Positions 646 through 16,743 of a DNA stretch of 16,743 bases are shown piece by piece. Position numbers and translations under genes: made by a program. Origin of the DNA: Clostridia bacterium (GTDB lineage: Bacteria; Bacillota; Clostridia; RGIG6154); the NCBI GenBank assembly GCA_045589295.1, contig JAZNOU010000009.1:1-16743 (forward strand), written 5' to 3'. Numbering within the stretch: position 1 is the stretch's first letter; every line of letters begins with the position of its first letter. Under the pieces are notes generated by a model. It was given only the letters and a program-made list of their open reading frames with translations, was not told where the DNA came from and did no database searches.

Positions 646-721
646 TGGCAGGGGCAGAAGGACTTGAACCCTCGGCACGCGGTTTTGGAGACCGCTGCTC
701 TACCAACTGAGCTATACCCCT
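646..721 (-). tRNA. tRNA-Trp (anticodon CCA)
   Basis: Reverse complement AGGGGTATAGCTCAGTTGGTAGAGCAGCGGTCT-CCA-AAACCGCGTGCCGAGGGTTCAAGTCCTTCTGCCCCTGCCA: 76 nt cloverleaf with D-loop, TTCAA T-loop and encoded CCA end. Confidence 0.97.
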
Positions 722-1179: not shown

Positions 1180-2055
1180 CTATCCTCTTGGGTGATATTT
1201 AGAGTAAACTTCCTTTAATTTGCTGCTTTTTAAGTTCTCATAAAACTTTGTTGACGCCATTGCAGAATGCCCCATAAACTCCTGCAGCAACTTTATATCC
1301 ACTCCATTTTCAAGCAGATGAGTCGCAAATGAGTGCCTTAAAATTTTAGGGCTTATCTCCTTTTCAATACCTGCACTTTTTTTGTACTGTCTAATTATTT
1401 TCCAAAATCCCTGTCTTGTAAGAGGTTTGCCGTAGATGTTTACAAACAGGTATTCACTCTGCTCTTTTAATCCATTATGAAATGGTGAAACCTCCAGATA
1501 TTTTTGAAGCGCTGTTTTTGCGAGCGTCCCAAACGGCAAAGCTCTTCTGTCTGAACCCTCGCACCTTAAAATTTCTTTTTCCGGCTCAATGTCATCTACC
1601 TTGATTTCAACAAGTTCTGAAACTCTTATTCCCGTCGCATATAAAAGTTCAAGCATTGCTTTATCACGCACGTTTTTGAAGTCGTCACCATCAGGCTGTG
1701 ACAAAAGTCTGTCAACTTCTTTTATCGTAAGTATTTCAGGAAGCTGTCTTTCCGACTTTGGTGAAGAAATTCCACTTGTTGGATTTCTTTTCATTCTCTC
1801 TGTAACATTTAAATATTTATAAAAGCCCCTGATTGACGCTAAATTTCTTGATATCGTCTGTGCGCTCTTTCCCTCTCTTTGCAAAAGAGAAAGATATGCC
1901 ACAACAGTTGCTTTTCTAACTTTTAATGCAGTAGAGTTGTTAGCTTTAAGATATTCCAAATAGCCGTACAGATCATGCTTGTACGACATAAGTGTATTAT
2001 ATGAAAGCTTTCGCTTATTTTCCAAATAACCTAAATATGTATCAATCAATTCCAT
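1180..2055 (-). CDS. xerD: XerD-like site-specific tyrosine recombinase (atypical catalytic motifs)
   Basis: N-terminal SAM-like domain (LSYNTLMSYKHDL), RDKAMLELLYATGIRVSEL, LTRQGFWKII, LRHSFATHLLENG, GH..STKFY; conserved spoIIM-xerD adjacency. Confidence 0.85.
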   Translation of the reverse strand: MELIDTYLGYLENKRKLSYNTLMSYKHDLYGYLEYLKANNSTALKVRKATVVAYLSLLQREGKSAQTISRNLASIRGFYKYLNVTERMKRNPTSGISSPKSERQLPEILTIKEVDRLLSQPDGDDFKNVRDKAMLELLYATGIRVSELVEIKVDDIEPEKEILRCEGSDRRALPFGTLAKTALQKYLEVSPFHNGLKEQSEYLFVNIYGKPLTRQGFWKIIRQYKKSAGIEKEISPKILRHSFATHLLENGVDIKLLQEFMGHSAMASTKFYENLKSSKLKEVYSKYHPRG

Positions 2056-2122: not shown

Positions 2123-2692
2123 TCATGTAATATTTACCTTCAACAGTGTTTCTGCCAAGCCACCTAAAAATGCTGCTACAAGTGACAGCATAAAGCAAAT
2201 TGCAAGTTTCAAAACAAATTTTTGACCTTTTCCGGTTTGCTTGTTAAAAACAATGGTCTTGCACACAGAAAGCGAGCACTCAAGACTAGCCTGTGAAAGC
2301 AACACTGTCCCAAGCACAGTACAAGCTATATAAGGAATAACGCTTATTACTGCAACAAACTTATTTGCACTTTCCAAAGCCATTATCGAGTAAACTGCTG
2401 CAGAAATATACGCACCCTTTGAATACAAAAGATATATAATAACAGGAACTCCTACACTATTGAGCCCCCAAACTGCAATCCACGTAAAATATTTCATATT
2501 TTCAAGGAAAGATGTAATAATTATTTGATTTTTGTCCGCTTCTATGTGCTGAAAAATTTGTATGTTTTCTGCTCGCAAGGCGCCGAATGAACCTGATATT
2601 ACCCCGGCACAAATTGATGTGAAAACCACAAAAAACATATATCTGTTACGTTTAAAATAATGAGTAGCTTTCCTTTTAAAAATCAAAAACAC
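2123..2692 (-). CDS. spoIIM: Stage II sporulation protein M-like membrane protein
   Basis: Multi-TM 189 aa protein with SFLENMKY..IAVWGL..VGVPVIIYLLYSKG and terminal GLAE, resembling SpoIIM; located directly upstream of xerD as in other Firmicutes. Start uncertain (GTG 2692 or TTG 2686). Confidence 0.65.
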   Translation of the reverse strand: MFLIFKRKATHYFKRNRYMFFVVFTSICAGVISGSFGALRAENIQIFQHIEADKNQIIITSFLENMKYFTWIAVWGLNSVGVPVIIYLLYSKGAYISAAVYSIMALESANKFVAVISVIPYIACTVLGTVLLSQASLECSLSVCKTIVFNKQTGKGQKFVLKLAICFMLSLVAAFLGGLAETLLKVNIT

Positions 2693-10486: not shown

Positions 10487-13400
10487 TTAAAATTCAAGTT
10501 CTGCAGCCTTATGATATGGTTTCATATTTGTGTATGTATCCCATACAAAGAGCTTAACAGCTTTAACGTTTGAACCATCTTCTACATTGATTGTAACATC
10601 AACAGGTCCTGTTACGCCTACCGGAATTTCTCCGTTTGTAACTGCAACCTGGCTGCAACCAAGCATCTGGTTGTATTCGCCATAAGCTGCAACTACTGCC
10701 CAAACTTTCATTGCATCTGATTCTGGGTTAGTAAATGTTACTTCTGTTGTAACAGCATTACCTGAAATTGTAGCACTTGTTGCTTCAGCAAATACACTTG
10801 TATATGCAGAAATTGTAACATCAACTGCTGTCTTCATCTTATAATAGTCTGGCAAATATGCATCAACTGCTGCCTTATAAGAGCCATTATAAGTTAAGTA
10901 TGCAGGTGTATCACCTATTTTTGGTGTATAAGTACACTCCCATTCCTTTGAATTAGCAATGTCACTTACCAAATACACGTTAGTTGTTCCCTCTTTCAAA
11001 GGATAGATGTCAGCAATTGGATAGTCGTAATAATGATACTGAGTTTTAATGCTATAACCATCTTCATCAGTTAATTCTTTCTTTAACTTGATAGTAAATG
11101 TTTCATTAGCCTGTAATGTATTAGAAAGCTTAACTTCCAATTTATAACCGCCATCTAAAGGTGTAACAGACTCAATACCACCTGATACTTCTTTGCCATC
11201 TTGACCAAGCAAAACAATGTTTGCGTTTGCTGTAGCAGTATCCACATTTACAGGTTTTGTGAATGTAAATGTAACAGCACCTTTAGCTACATTAAATACC
11301 TCGCTTGCACCTGTAACACTTTCAACCTCAAATGCGTCTACAAGATAAGCTTTGAAGTTGTCAATGTAAATTGTTGTAGGTGAAGATGAAGTACCAACTA
11401 CCGCACTCCAGATACCAAACATACCTTGAGCATCACCAACTGTGTTCATATCAAATTTTCGGCCGTACTTATCACCATTTGCAAAATCATAATTTGGACC
11501 AAAATCAAAACGGTCTTCGTTGTTCATTTCATGACCTACTATTTTTGCAACGTCGCCAGCCGGTCTCTTAATCAATTTGCCATCTAAATATATTCTCATT
11601 GTATCAAGTTCAGTTGACTGGTCGATAACTATTCTGAGTTTTTTAGGAGATGTTGTAATCAAATCCGGAGACTCACCTGAAGAATAAGCCCTTGCCCATG
11701 CAGAAACAGGACCATAGGTTCCAAAGTTGGTGCCATAGTGACCACCCTCTGCATAATACTGACCATTATTAAAATTGTTAGCCCATACACCGCCGCCAGT
11801 CGTAACGTTTATGGTGTCTTTTGTTAAAGAAGGTAAAAAGAACGGAGCGGTAGAGCCCATGCTTTCTGCATAAACATCAGCTTCATAAACAAGCTGTTTG
11901 CCTGCATATTCACCTTCTAATTTGAAAGGTGTACGATCAGTACTGAAGTTTCTTCTGAATGAAATAGTATTGTCACTGGTAGTTCCTGAATTTTCTGCGC
12001 TATGGATTTTAAGAACATTTCCTTTTAATCCACCTTCTACACCTGCTGGTGCCTCTACAACTCCGATAAAGCTGATATTAGGATCTTCCGTAGCAGCATT
12101 ATCCACATTATTATCTGGACGCTGTACGTCCCAATTACCAACTCGACGTCTGCCACCACTCCAATTAGCTAAGCTGTTGTCTTTTGGTTGGTCAAACCAG
12201 TTACCTGTAGGATAGGTAAATCCTGAGTCTGACTCAAAGGTTTCGTTAAAGAGTTCTATTGGCTTAGCTGCTCCCAGAATTGTAATATAAAAGCTACCGG
12301 TGAAAATTAAACCGCTGGCTGACACAAGGTTACCGTTTGTTGTAACAGTGTAGTCTGCAGTAGGAAGGTCAGTAAAATCAAAGATAACTTCTTTTTTGTT
12401 TGCACCAAATTCAGCAGTCCAACCCTGGTCTCTTGCAATTACTTCCTGTGTCTCTGTGTTTTTAACAACGATACTATTTGTAATAGCATCATCTTCAACT
12501 TCATGTGTGAATGTAGCAGTAACTTTTGTTTCTCTGCCTGTTTTAAACTTTGTAATAGTATCTTTTGAAAGATCTACTACAAAATCTACTATATTTTCAT
12601 TAACATGCACGTCTATATATGTAGCTTTTGAGTTGTTTTCAAGGCCCTGACCATGTTCGTCAATAAGTTTCGGGTCAATAACAATCTTATAATCTGCACC
12701 TTTAACTAAAGCGCCCGGGTTAATAGTAACTGTTTTATCGTCAGCAGCTAAATCAACTGTAACTCCTGAAACTGTATTACCGTTTTCATCTACCAACGAG
12801 AAGAGTTTATCATAAGTATAGCTTCTATTAACGTTAGCACCGTTGTCGTTTCTTTCCCAAGTACCAACTTCTCTCCTAATTTTCTGGTTAAATACAAGTT
12901 TAATATTTCCACCCTGATAATCTGCTGCGTTGATAGCATCAAATGCAAGTGCATCAATCCAGTAAGCTTCTAAATCATCAATGTAATATTTTGAGTTATT
13001 TCTATCTTGATAATTATAACTGGTAATAGTAAACTGGTTACCCCAGAATGTATCACCCATTGATTTATATCCGCCTTCTGTTAACGTACCATTAGGTAAA
13101 TAGTCAATCACTAAATCGCCTTGAGCCATAGTGTATTTACCATTTTCGCCATGATTAACCGCATCAGCAGCTTTACTAATAACAAGTGAATCGTCTAAGT
13201 AACCTCTTGCTGTATCAGAGTGAGTAGCAGAAAGCGGTTTAGAAACGTCAACAACATGCTTGATTTCAACCCACTTCCCACGTACATCAAAAGCGATTTT
13301 TGTTGACCCCATAGCTATGGGATAAACACATACAGGACTAGTAGTAGATTGCATAACGCTACCTAAGGTTGCACTAATACCAGACGGGCCGTTTTCTCTT

Positions 13401-13933
13401 GCATAATCTTCGTTAGCCGGGTTAACTAAGAACATTGATTCATACTTTGTGAAACCCGCAGGCATATAAATTTTTGCTTTATAAACAAGCTTTTTACCTA
13501 CACCCATTGTAGAACGTGCAATACCATTTTTGTTTTTTGACGCGTTGATTCTGATATGTGAAGCATAACCTTCTTTTACAAATTTGTCACGAAGATCGGG
13601 ATCCCATGCATCAAGTGCCAAAACCGTATTTGTTTCATCAAGTGGGTCTTTAACTATTTTTGCTGAATGTGTTTCATGACCAGAATCACCGAATGGTATG
13701 TTTGCTGTGAAAGCACCTTCTGCAACGCCTTCAGCTTTAACATATCTGTTTGAATCTCTAGATGTTATCCAGTTTGTGCCGCCGATTTCATAATCAAAGC
13801 CTTCTTGGTAAAGATATTCAAGCTGACTTCCCGCATTAGACGCAACAGTTTCTGCAGAAGCGGGAATTACGCATGCAGACATTGTGGTCAAAAGCATAGT
13901 TATTGCGAGCAAAGACGCTAAAATCTTTTTCAC
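10487..13933 (-). CDS. Large secreted/surface modular protein (signal peptide, two lectin/jelly-roll-like domains, three Big_5-like Ig domains, unnamed C-terminal domain)
   Basis: MKKILASLLAITMLL...PASA signal peptide; GAGGAGG RBS; internal repeats (KKLVYKAKIY/KQLVYEADVY, YIDDLEAYWIDA/YIDNFKAYLVDA); Ig-like F....I/V...Y.I.I...L.D..G..L pattern. Confidence 0.8.
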   Translation of the reverse strand: MKKILASLLAITMLLTTMSACVIPASAETVASNAGSQLEYLYQEGFDYEIGGTNWITSRDSNRYVKAEGVAEGAFTANIPFGDSGHETHSAKIVKDPLDETNTVLALDAWDPDLRDKFVKEGYASHIRINASKNKNGIARSTMGVGKKLVYKAKIYMPAGFTKYESMFLVNPANEDYARENGPSGISATLGSVMQSTTSPVCVYPIAMGSTKIAFDVRGKWVEIKHVVDVSKPLSATHSDTARGYLDDSLVISKAADAVNHGENGKYTMAQGDLVIDYLPNGTLTEGGYKSMGDTFWGNQFTITSYNYQDRNNSKYYIDDLEAYWIDALAFDAINAADYQGGNIKLVFNQKIRREVGTWERNDNGANVNRSYTYDKLFSLVDENGNTVSGVTVDLAADDKTVTINPGALVKGADYKIVIDPKLIDEHGQGLENNSKATYIDVHVNENIVDFVVDLSKDTITKFKTGRETKVTATFTHEVEDDAITNSIVVKNTETQEVIARDQGWTAEFGANKKEVIFDFTDLPTADYTVTTNGNLVSASGLIFTGSFYITILGAAKPIELFNETFESDSGFTYPTGNWFDQPKDNSLANWSGGRRRVGNWDVQRPDNNVDNAATEDPNISFIGVVEAPAGVEGGLKGNVLKIHSAENSGTTSDNTISFRRNFSTDRTPFKLEGEYAGKQLVYEADVYAESMGSTAPFFLPSLTKDTINVTTGGGVWANNFNNGQYYAEGGHYGTNFGTYGPVSAWARAYSSGESPDLITTSPKKLRIVIDQSTELDTMRIYLDGKLIKRPAGDVAKIVGHEMNNEDRFDFGPNYDFANGDKYGRKFDMNTVGDAQGMFGIWSAVVGTSSSPTTIYIDNFKAYLVDAFEVESVTGASEVFNVAKGAVTFTFTKPVNVDTATANANIVLLGQDGKEVSGGIESVTPLDGGYKLEVKLSNTLQANETFTIKLKKELTDEDGYSIKTQYHYYDYPIADIYPLKEGTTNVYLVSDIANSKEWECTYTPKIGDTPAYLTYNGSYKAAVDAYLPDYYKMKTAVDVTISAYTSVFAEATSATISGNAVTTEVTFTNPESDAMKVWAVVAAYGEYNQMLGCSQVAVTNGEIPVGVTGPVDVTINVEDGSNVKAVKLFVWDTYTNMKPYHKAAELEF

Positions 13934-14023
13934 AATAATTCCTCCTCTTTTAAATGTTAATTTTTTTGTTGAGGTGTTTCTTTAAAACAAGGGCATTAGT
14001 CTAAAGTACACCGATACAGAATT

Positions 14024-14052
14024 ATTATAAATCTTTTTCCTATAAATGTCAA
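14024..14052 (-). promoter_or_regulatory. Perfect-consensus SigA promoter of the large secreted protein gene
   Basis: TTGACA-17 nt-TATAAT on the minus strand. Confidence 0.85.
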
Positions 14053-14104
14053 GTGTTAATTTGTGTTTTTTTTAACGTGTTTTTTTGACATTGATTATGC
14101 ATTA

Positions 14105-14132
14105 AAACGGCGAGTGAAACCACTCGCCGTTT
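14105..14132 (-). terminator. Intrinsic terminator after the clp gene
   Basis: AAACGGCGAGTG-aaac-CACTCGCCGTTT 12 bp perfect stem, 14 nt past the stop. Confidence 0.8.
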
Positions 14133-14146
14133 ATACATTTTTCTAC

Positions 14147-16741
14147 CTATTTAATTATAACAAATTTTTCACCATTATAATCTATACTTATGCTGTCTCC
14201 TTTTAAAACCTTGCCCTCAAGCATTTGCTCTGCCAACAAATCCTCTATTTCTGAGGTTATTGCGCGACGCAAAGGGCGCGCCCCGTAAACGGGGTCAAAG
14301 CCTGTTTTTGCAAGATGTGAAACTGCTTCCTTTGTAACTGTCATTTCTATTTCGTTTTCTTTAAGGCGGTTTATTAATCCTGCAAGCATTTTTTCAGCTA
14401 TCTGTTCAATTTCTTCTTCTACAAGCTGTTTGAACACAATTATATCATCAATTCTGTTCAAAAACTCAGGGCGGAAGGTATTTTTAAGCTCAGAAAGAAC
14501 TTTATTTTTGATATCCTGATAGTTTGTGTCTGTTTTTTCATCGCTTTGTGCAAACCCAAACGCTTTTGGTGTTTCGGTTATTCTTAATGCGCCAACGTTA
14601 GACGTCAATATTATTATTGTGTTCTTAAAGTCGATTTTTCTTCCCTGTGAATCTGTCAAAATCCCGTCCTCTAAAATTTGAAGCAGAATATTAAACACAT
14701 CGGGGTGGGCCTTCTCTACCTCGTCAAAGAGGACCACACTGTAGGGCCGGCGGCGCACGGCCTCCGTCAGCTGGCCGCCCTCCTCGTAGCCCACATAGCC
14801 GGGAGGGGCGCCGATGAGCCGGGACACGGCGAATTTTTCCATATATTCGGACATATCGATGCGGACCATGTTGCTCTCGTCGTCAAAGAGGGCACCCGCC
14901 AGGGTTTTGGCCAGCTCCGTCTTGCCCACGCCCGTGGGACCCAGGAACAGGAAGGAGCCGATGGGCCGGTTGGGGTCACTGATGCCCGCCCGGCTGCGCT
15001 GGATGGCCTCGGTGACGGCGGTGACCGCCTCGTCCTGACCCACCACCCGCTGGTGGAGGGTCTCGTCCAGCTTCAGAAGCTTTTCCCGTTCGCCCTGCAC
15101 CAGCCGGGAGACGGGGATGCCCGTCCACCGCTCCACGATCTTGGCGATCTCCTCGTCGGAGACGCGGTCGCGGAGGATGCTGTTTTCCTTTGCCGCGGCG
15201 GCCTTCTGTTCCTCGCGGATAAGCTGCCGCTCCAGCTCCGGACGGCGGCCGTATTTCAGCTCGGCGGCCTTCTCCAGATCATACCGCTGCTCGGCGGCCT
15301 CGATCTGGCGGCTCAGATCCTCCAGCTGCTCGCGAAGCTGCTGGACATGGCCGATGGCGGCCTTTTCATTTTCCCACTGAGCCTTGCGGGCGTTGAAGCT
15401 CTCCCGCTCCTCGGCCAGCTCCTTCTGCAGGTCAGCCAGCCGGGCACGGCTCAGGTCATCCTCTTCCTTCTTCAGCGCGGCCTCCTCGATCTCCAGCTGG
15501 ATGATCCGGCGGGATACGGCGTCCAGCTCACTGGGCATGGAGTCCATCTCCGTACGGATCTGGGCGCAGGCCTCGTCCACCAGGTCGATGGCCTTGTCCG
15601 GGAGAAAGCGGTCGGTGATATAGGGGTGGGTGAGTGTGGCGGCGGCGATGATGGCGGAGTCCGCGATCTTGACGCCGTGGAAGACCTCGTACCGCTCCTT
15701 CAGACCCCGCAGGATGGTGATGGTGTCCTCCACCGTAGGCTCATTCACCAGCACACTCTGGAACCGCCGCTCCAGAGCCGCGTCCTTCTCGATATACTGG
15801 CGGTACTCGTCCAGGGTGGTGGCACCGATGCAGTGGAGTTCGCCCCGGGCCACCATGGGCTTGAGCAGGTTGCCCGCGTCCATGGCTCCGTCGGTCTTGC
15901 CCGCGCCCACGATGGTGTGCAGTTCATCGATAAAGAGGATGATCCTGCCCTCGGACTCCTTGACCTCGGTCAGCACGGCCTTCAGCCGCTCCTCGAATTC
16001 GCCGCGGTATTTCGCACCGGCGATCAGCGCGCCCATGTCCAGGGAGAAGATGGTCTTGTCCTGGAGGGATTTGGGCACATCCTTTTTCACGATTCGCTGG
16101 GCAAGTCCTTCGGCGATGGCGGTCTTGCCGACACCGGGCTCGCCGATGAGGACGGGATTGTTTTTGGTCTTCCGGGACAGAATGCGGATGACGTTGCGGA
16201 TTTCTTCATCTCTGCCGATGACGGGATCCATCTTCTGTTCCCGGGCCCGCTTGACGAGATCGGTGCCGTACTTGCCCAGAGCCTCGTAGGTGCCCTCGGG
16301 GTTGTCGGTGGTGACCCGCTGGGAGCCACGGACGGACTGGAGGGAGCGCAGGGCGTCCTCCTTTGTCACCCGGTAGGTGTCGAGGAGGGTCTTGGTGATG
16401 CCCCGGGCGGTCTCCAGCAGTCCCAGGAACAGGTGCTCCACGGAAACGTAGTCGTCGTGCATGGCGGCGGCCTGATTTTCCGCGGCGGTGAAGGTCTCGT
16501 CCAGTGCGCTCGACAGGTACAGCTGGTCGGAGCCGCCGCTGACGGCGGGCAGCCTGGAAAGCTCCTGATTCACGGCGGCGGTCAGACTCTCGGTGACCAC
16601 GCCCATCTTCTTCAGAAGCTGGGGCACCAGCCCGCCCTCCTGGTTCAAAAGGGCGCGGAGCAGATGCAGCTGCTCGATCTGGGGATTGCGCCGGGTCCGG
16701 GCGATGGACTGGCTGAGCTGAACGGCCTCGATGGATTTCTG
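14147..16741 (-). CDS. clpB: Hsp100 AAA+ chaperone: ClpB (high-GC, about 14700-16743) joined in frame to a ClpC-type C-terminus (low-GC, 14147-14700); 5' end just outside window
   Basis: The frame stays open upstream of 16648 ([32 protein letters not shown]); two Walker A motifs ([16 protein letters not shown]) and a long ClpB middle domain; the tail has a ClpC-like TSNVGA...FGF loop. Confidence 0.85.
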
Positions 16742-16743
16742 GG

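Follow-up and report, generated by a model that had tools for sequence, protein, structure and literature searches.

An in-frame ClpB/ClpC hybrid reading frame at the end of a Clostridia contig is very probably an inter-genome assembly chimera

The window analyzed here is a 16,743-nucleotide stretch that makes up the entire contig JAZNOU010000009.1 (C9) of a Clostridia bacterium genome, referred to as G000, which comprises 22 contigs and 1,544,546 bases at approximately 35% GC and is estimated to be 97.37% complete and 0.14% contaminated. Our subject is a frame on the minus strand of C9 (14147..16741) that stays open over 864 codons and extends past the contig end. Its N-terminal part is of the ClpB type and its C-terminal part of the ClpC type, the two are joined exactly in frame, and Pfam reads the product as a domain-complete Hsp100 protein. 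The initial annotation of the window had considered both a natural protein resembling the engineered disaggregase BAP and an assembly artifact, and had preferred a mis-join between the organism's own clpC and another organism's high-GC clpB through a motif common to both, a preference that the comparisons presented here support.

The 3′ end of the frame (14147..14681, minus strand) encodes the C-terminal 177 residues of a native clpC-type gene product and includes its stop codon (14147-14149); the GC content of 0.365 and the GC content at third codon positions (GC3) of 0.33 resemble those of the contig at large. This part covers the end of AAA-2 with a ClpC-type loop insertion, followed by a D2-small domain (Pfam ClpB_D2-small, residues 773-853). 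Three codons read from the sequence as FGF (14552..14560, minus strand) lie within the 40-residue insertion that runs from TSN to FRPEF. They are presumed to encode the ClpP-docking loop of the native ClpC, which we take to be the counterpart of the VGF and IGL loops in Bacillus ClpC and ClpA, respectively, and FGF or LGF is kept at the corresponding position in the same-genus genomes G001, G002, and G003 as well as in genome G008. The 5′ part of the frame (14708..16743, minus strand; GC approximately 0.64-0.65, GC3 0.86) is a foreign, GC-rich clpB head encoding an N-domain, AAA-1, a long coiled-coil middle domain, and most of AAA-2, and its 5′ end is still open where it reaches the contig end. 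By alignment, the middle domain of this head exceeds that of the native ClpC-type gene in length by about 60 residues, in agreement with the ClpB coiled coil that had been read there earlier, and a Pfam search of the hybrid frame for a UVR motif found none. Between head and tail lies a crossover zone (14682..14707) of 26 bases, encoding HPDVFNILL, that is identical in C9 and in a second contig of the same genome, C15.

Composition changes abruptly at this zone. In 300-base windows along C9, GC is 0.32-0.43 from 11000 to about 14750, 0.53 at 14600-14899, and 0.60-0.68 from 14750 to the contig end, while GC3 is 0.86 in the head, 0.33 in the tail, and 0.255 in the neighboring native ORF (10487-13933). 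The initial annotation had put the flip from AT-rich DNA to GC-rich DNA with G or C in third positions at about 14690-14725, inside a conserved motif and without a frameshift. We likewise find a rise in GC from about 0.37 to 0.65 that sits within the codons of a conserved 17-residue motif and leaves the frame intact, and comparison with C15 narrows the switch to 14682-14707. This switch is far beyond chance. The other 21 contigs of the genome have GC contents of 0.337-0.375, and a scan of the whole 1.54 Mb in 500-base windows at steps of 100 returned windows above 0.52 GC only on C9 (18 windows, all in the final 2 kb) and once at the start of C20. The C20 peak (C20:1-600, locus L106) is explained by two tRNA genes (332-404 and 476-547) and is not foreign DNA. 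The GC-rich stretch, the terminal 2 kb or so of C9, is therefore unique within the genome and forms a contig tip. Host DNA does not resume upstream of it, the segment reaching the end of C9 at position 16743 with the ORF still open, and a search of the other contigs of this genome for an overlap with the GC-rich segment found none.

The AT-rich tail has a match in all 31 genomes searched (G000 and 30 relatives), and its best matches in the same-genus genomes G002, G003, and G001 lie in open frames of 868-869 codons. The gene is present as a single copy in each of these three genomes, encodes 864-865 amino acids counted from Met, has a GC content of 0.40-0.43, and follows der-plsY-gpsA; the ctsR-mcsA-mcsB context that the initial annotation had expected for the native clpC was not what we saw. 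In the coding direction, the product consists of a Cys-rich extension beginning MICQICG, Clp_N repeats, AAA-1, a short middle domain with a UVR motif, AAA-2 with the FGF insertion, and D2-small. Judged by its domains, this 864- to 865-amino-acid protein of the genus is ClpC-type, not ClpB; against a UVR (PF02151) cutoff of 21.5 bits, the C15 ORF scores 28.5 and G002 scores 30.9. The DNA just 3′ of the clpC stop codon in the window (13850..14092) matches G002 by blastn at 84.8% over 243 bases, directly after the clpC of that genome, and this positional match ties the C9 tail to its native surroundings.

These matches bear on whether C9 as a whole could be a binning error, the entire contig having come from another organism to which the hybrid gene belongs. 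Binned genomes can hold foreign contigs, a general point made in an excerpt of PMC10523443. However, the first 14.7 kb of C9 have genome-typical GC (0.32-0.43) and ordinary housekeeping genes, only the last 2 kb are foreign, and the tail and its flank match same-genus genomes at 76-85%, which refutes an origin of the entire contig elsewhere. We consider a binning error extremely unlikely.

The remainder of the native gene was found on C15. There, an ORF that begins with the MICQICG extension runs off the start of the contig, and its residues 1-684 align with residues 1-684 of the G002 protein at 90.8% identity without a gap (87.4% for G001 and 86.0% for G003). The 177-residue C9 tail takes up the alignment at residues 685-860 of G002 (85.2% identity), again without a gap, with 81.8% identity and no gaps for G003 and 76.8% identity for G001. 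The C15 head and the C9 tail together give 861 residues, compared with 864-865 in the relatives. The other two pieces align poorly with the relatives' gene: the GC-rich head of C9 reaches only 48.1-48.7% identity with 75-80 gap positions (48.7% and 80 for G002), and the last 104 residues of the C15 ORF reach only 50.0-50.5% with 9 gap positions. C15:232-6447 is collinear with the der-plsY-gpsA-clpC region of G002 (80.4%), G003, and G001, and this collinearity, together with the match of C9:13850-14092 to the DNA that follows clpC in G002, puts the adjacency of C15 and C9 in agreement with the flanks on both sides. The native continuation is present elsewhere in the assembly, and C15 plus C9 restore collinearity with the relatives. 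The initial annotation had proposed looking for a low-GC 5′ half of the native clpC on another contig, a find that would refute a real hybrid; C15 carries it, native up to the same 26-mer. The native gene made up of the C15 head and the C9 tail classes as ClpC by its UVR middle domain and FGF insertion, with ClpP binding putative.

The N-terminal extension of the native ClpC-type protein deserves a mention in its own right. It comprises about 45 residues with two CxxC pairs (MICQICG...CSECAAK), lies at C15:~2230-2366 (minus strand) in this genome, and is kept in G001-G003 and G008 (L022:4075-4210, L023, L024, and L025). Pfam placed no family above its cutoff on the extension, the best being DUF7685 (E=0.0028). 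We presume a resemblance to the N-terminal zinc finger of McsA, which would make the protein a fusion of a McsA finger with ClpC.

The longest substring common to the ends of C9 and C15 is the 26-base crossover word, CACCCCGATGTGTTTAATATTCTGCT (C15:316-341). In the coding direction, C15 is native before this word and foreign after it, and C9 is foreign before it and native after it; in both contigs the foreign part extends to the contig end, over 315 bases on C15 and 2,036 bases on C9. The C15 tip (C15:1-341, loci L002 and L003) encodes a ClpB-type tail without the loop insertion, is intermediate in GC with a GC3 of 0.55, and would have escaped a screen by GC alone; its frame is still open at the start of the contig. 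The full 113 residues align with the tails of Clostridia clpB loci at 63-67% identity. Three classes of codon usage are thus present, with GC3 values of 0.25-0.33 in native sequence, 0.55 in the C15 tip, and 0.86 in the C9 head, and their difference indicates that the C9 head and the C15 tip derive from two different donors and not from a simple reciprocal exchange. On this evidence, clp genes of at least three organisms met at the shared motif. The single foreign clpB partner that the initial annotation had envisaged therefore accounts for C9 but not for C15, which bears a second foreign ClpB-type tip.

Other origins of the C15 tip were considered and rejected. A two-genome reciprocal swap, in which the tip would be the missing tail of the GC-rich clpB, does not fit the GC3 values (0.55 versus 0.86), and proteins whose heads match the C9 head at 91-93% have tails that share only 60-69% identity with the tip. 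A native paralogue does not fit either, the best match among 12 other genomes being 62%, in a genome of the same class, and the same-genus genomes matching solely through clpC at 58-59%, with no clpB found in the genus. G001, G002, and G003 each show only the ClpC type in the 868-amino-acid frame, a Clp ATPase of 750-762 amino acids, and a weak ClpX-like match, and the genus seems to be without ClpB altogether. As for other Clp ATPases in G000, the protein search gave matches on C15 and C5 and a weak ClpX-like match on C8.

The origin of the GC-rich head was traced in two collections. Against contigs from one genome per species, of which 80 loci were kept, the best match was an uncultured Oscillospiraceae metagenome-assembled genome (MAG) at 78%, followed at 68-75% by other Oscillospiraceae, Ruminococcus, Lachnospiraceae, and Muriventricola aceti (72%). 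We also searched a collection of 5.8 billion proteins from public assemblies; the figures that follow refer to the 120 best matches listed, nearly all of which are 855-863 residues long. The 25 closest heads are 91.1-93.0% identical over 687 residues, all but one of them without gaps, and belong to ordinary ClpBs of 861 amino acids. The tails of these same 25 proteins share only 38-44% identity, with gaps, with the C9 tail. The hybrid architecture was found in none of the 120, the highest tail identity to the C9 tail being 43.7%. The stretch from TSN to FRPEF measures 31 residues in 117 of the 120, 36 in 2, and could not be parsed in 1, compared with 40 in the C9 ORF, and the ClpC-type insertion with FGF that had been noted in the AT-rich tail is upheld by this comparison. 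The GC-rich head accordingly classes as ClpB by its long middle domain and its 91-93% identity to ClpBs with ClpB-type tails, and the two sides of the junction differ in organismal origin as judged by composition and nearest relatives. Searching the halves separately, as had been suggested, therefore assigns the head to the ClpB of other organisms (91-93%) and the tail to the gene of the genus (77-85%).

We consider it very probable that the hybrid ORF is an inter-genome assembly chimera and not a natural ClpB-ClpC hybrid. The comparisons show that the native gene is split, that its two parts share a 26-mer, that both tips are of foreign origin, and that these tips lie at contig ends. In the sequence of events that we propose, the organism would hold one ordinary low-GC clpC-type gene of about 861 codons, and the metagenome assembly path through this clpC would have broken at a highly conserved stretch of 15 residues common to clpB genes in the community. 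Starting at this shared stretch, C9 would have grown into the 5′ two-thirds of a high-GC clpB of Oscillospiraceae-like type as far as the contig end, and C15, starting there too, would have grown into the 3′ end of a different clpB up to its own end. In the true genome, C15 and C9 would then be linked by their 26-base overlap, and there would be no hybrid protein. We infer that the mis-join was created where a short-k de Bruijn graph branched, the 26-base identity being suited to k=21 and not to k≥27. Conserved Hsp100 motifs may serve as natural meeting points for the many genomes of a gut community.

Alternatively, the assembler may have followed faithfully a molecule that was already chimeric before assembly, produced by PCR template switching or as a ligation or amplification chimera. 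Template switching occurs at short shared stretches and keeps the frame, and it would fit the 26-base identity. However, the two contigs switch at the same 26-mer to different partners (GC3 0.86 and 0.55), and both end soon afterward, a double pattern that suits a branching graph node better, since rare chimeric molecules would seldom win the assembly path twice. We therefore regard a library chimera as unlikely.

More consequential would be a real recombinant, in which the 5′ 80% of clpC had been replaced by a horizontally acquired high-GC clpB through homologous recombination at the motif. The intact frame and complete domains are compatible with this, as is a clpP gene elsewhere in the genome (C8:29159-29698). 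An excerpt of PMC4023160, citing Weibezahn et al. 2004, describes BAP as an engineered Escherichia coli ClpB that carries the ClpP-binding segment of ClpA, and by that description such a design works. If the hybrid were real, the organism would possess a natural counterpart of BAP, an Hsp100 in which an Oscillospiraceae ClpB head and its Hsp70-responsive middle domain sit on a ClpP-docking ClpC tail, and this protein would couple disaggregation to degradation by feeding disaggregated proteins to ClpP. However, the native head that was supposedly replaced is present on C15, where it breaks at the same 26-mer with a foreign tail of its own, so that two reciprocal swaps with two different donors would be needed. 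In addition, no sign of amelioration is seen in the GC-rich segment, the contig stops within it before any host DNA reappears, and the architecture is absent from all 120 of the nearest proteins listed, while the plain native gene is present in all three same-genus genomes. We judge a real recombinant very unlikely, and equally so a junction that is real in at least part of the population, with C15 representing either a coexisting strain or a second mis-assembly. The natural BAP-like protein entertained in the initial annotation is thus not supported, given the native head on C15, the lack of host DNA upstream, and the lack of any other genome with the architecture among those compared. The evidence instead says that the GC-rich head and the AT-rich tail probably never sat on one molecule.

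Several observations weigh against the assembly chimera and should be set beside those that favor it. An in-frame join that is complete by Pfam would also be expected of a real recombinant. At most 17 consecutive bases of the 26-mer recur exactly in any of 80 species-representative clpB loci, indicating that words of sufficient length for a graph mis-join are not commonly shared; the donor sequence at the 26-mer must then have been unusually close, or the effective shared word must have been shorter. A search of public sequencing runs with window positions 13700-15700 (20 rows, from 10 studies) gave no run that held at least half of the sampled words, the best reaching 0.37. Finally, an exact 41-mer of the native tail next to the junction had 0 matches in metagenome_contigs, and hence no independent contig with an uninterrupted native gene of this species was obtained.

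Assembled public reads add some detail on either side of the junction. Logan contigs of four runs (X1, X3, X4, and X6), which come from four studies and from other samples, were compared with positions 12700-16743 at 90% likeness; the statements here concern the records listed, beyond which there are 3167 others. The native tail occurs in such contigs of public gut runs at 98% to more than 99% identity. Record 5 of X1 covers 14160-14693 with 2 differences, record 20 of X4 covers 14429-14707 and continues with 15 letters that do not fit the window, and record 9 of X3 reaches 14728 and ends 13 letters further on. No listed record bridges the junction with at least 31 bases on each side, an observation in line with the chimera but weak as evidence, given that these are other samples and that the listing covers only part of the records. 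The GC-rich side is represented only by pieces of 90-160 bases at 90-95% identity, lying in conserved blocks and coming from many organisms, so that Logan depth on this side is a sum over many organisms and says nothing about G000, just as missing cover there is no evidence.

Two further features of C9 may be recorded. The ORF directly downstream of clpC (10487-13933, minus strand) encodes 1148 residues whose sole recognizable domain is Big_5 (residues 867-967), and the gene at this position differs in G003, where it encodes a 665-amino-acid protein. Near the opposite end of the contig, a tRNA gene (649-721, minus strand) adjoins an ORF for a tyrosine recombinase (1180-2055, minus strand) with Phage_integrase and Phage_int_SAM_1 domains, which appears XerC/D-like.

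As biology, then, the locus would offer no natural coupling of ClpB to ClpP. Its relevance is to the quality of assemblies and of the protein databases derived from them. Both joins are in frame, and gene callers consequently predict an unbroken protein that Pfam accepts as a full Hsp100, so that an in-frame, domain-complete chimera of this kind would pass into protein databases as a credible new Hsp100, an entry that should be avoided. Meanwhile, the genuine clpC of the organism is recorded as two broken genes, one on C9 and the other on C15, with foreign sequence at the tip of both, and the completeness and contamination scores of the genome do not flag the chimera. The features that exposed it, namely, a composition flip within a conserved motif near a contig end together with a second contig that breaks at the same word, may provide a practical recipe for spotting such artifacts.

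Compared with inter-species chimeric contigs known from MAGs, the present case shares a junction in a conserved coding motif, an abrupt change in composition and codon usage, foreign DNA at a contig tip, and a native continuation that breaks at the same word elsewhere. It departs from the typical case in that both broken ends bear foreign tips, two donors are involved, and both joins are in frame. On paper, the hybrid has the layout of BAP, with a ClpB N-domain, AAA-1, and a long middle domain, after which comes the end of AAA-2 from a ClpP-partnered Hsp100, including its hydrophobic-Gly-Phe loop; BAP, however, is a small loop graft into ClpB, whereas the C9 ORF takes its whole last 177 residues from another gene. 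The C9 head is like the ClpBs of Oscillospiraceae and other Clostridia in its long middle domain and in its 91-93% identity over 687 residues to proteins of 861 amino acids, but real ClpBs end in a ClpB tail with a TSN-to-FRPEF stretch of 31 residues, whereas the C9 ORF ends in the ClpC tail of the host. The native gene, for its part, resembles the ClpC of Firmicutes in its two Clp_N repeats, two AAA modules, short UVR middle domain, FGF loop, and D2-small domain. Firmicutes clpC lies in a ctsR-mcsA-mcsB operon; the native gene instead follows der-plsY-gpsA, and a further difference is the additional stretch of about 45 residues, bearing two CxxC pairs, at its N-terminus.

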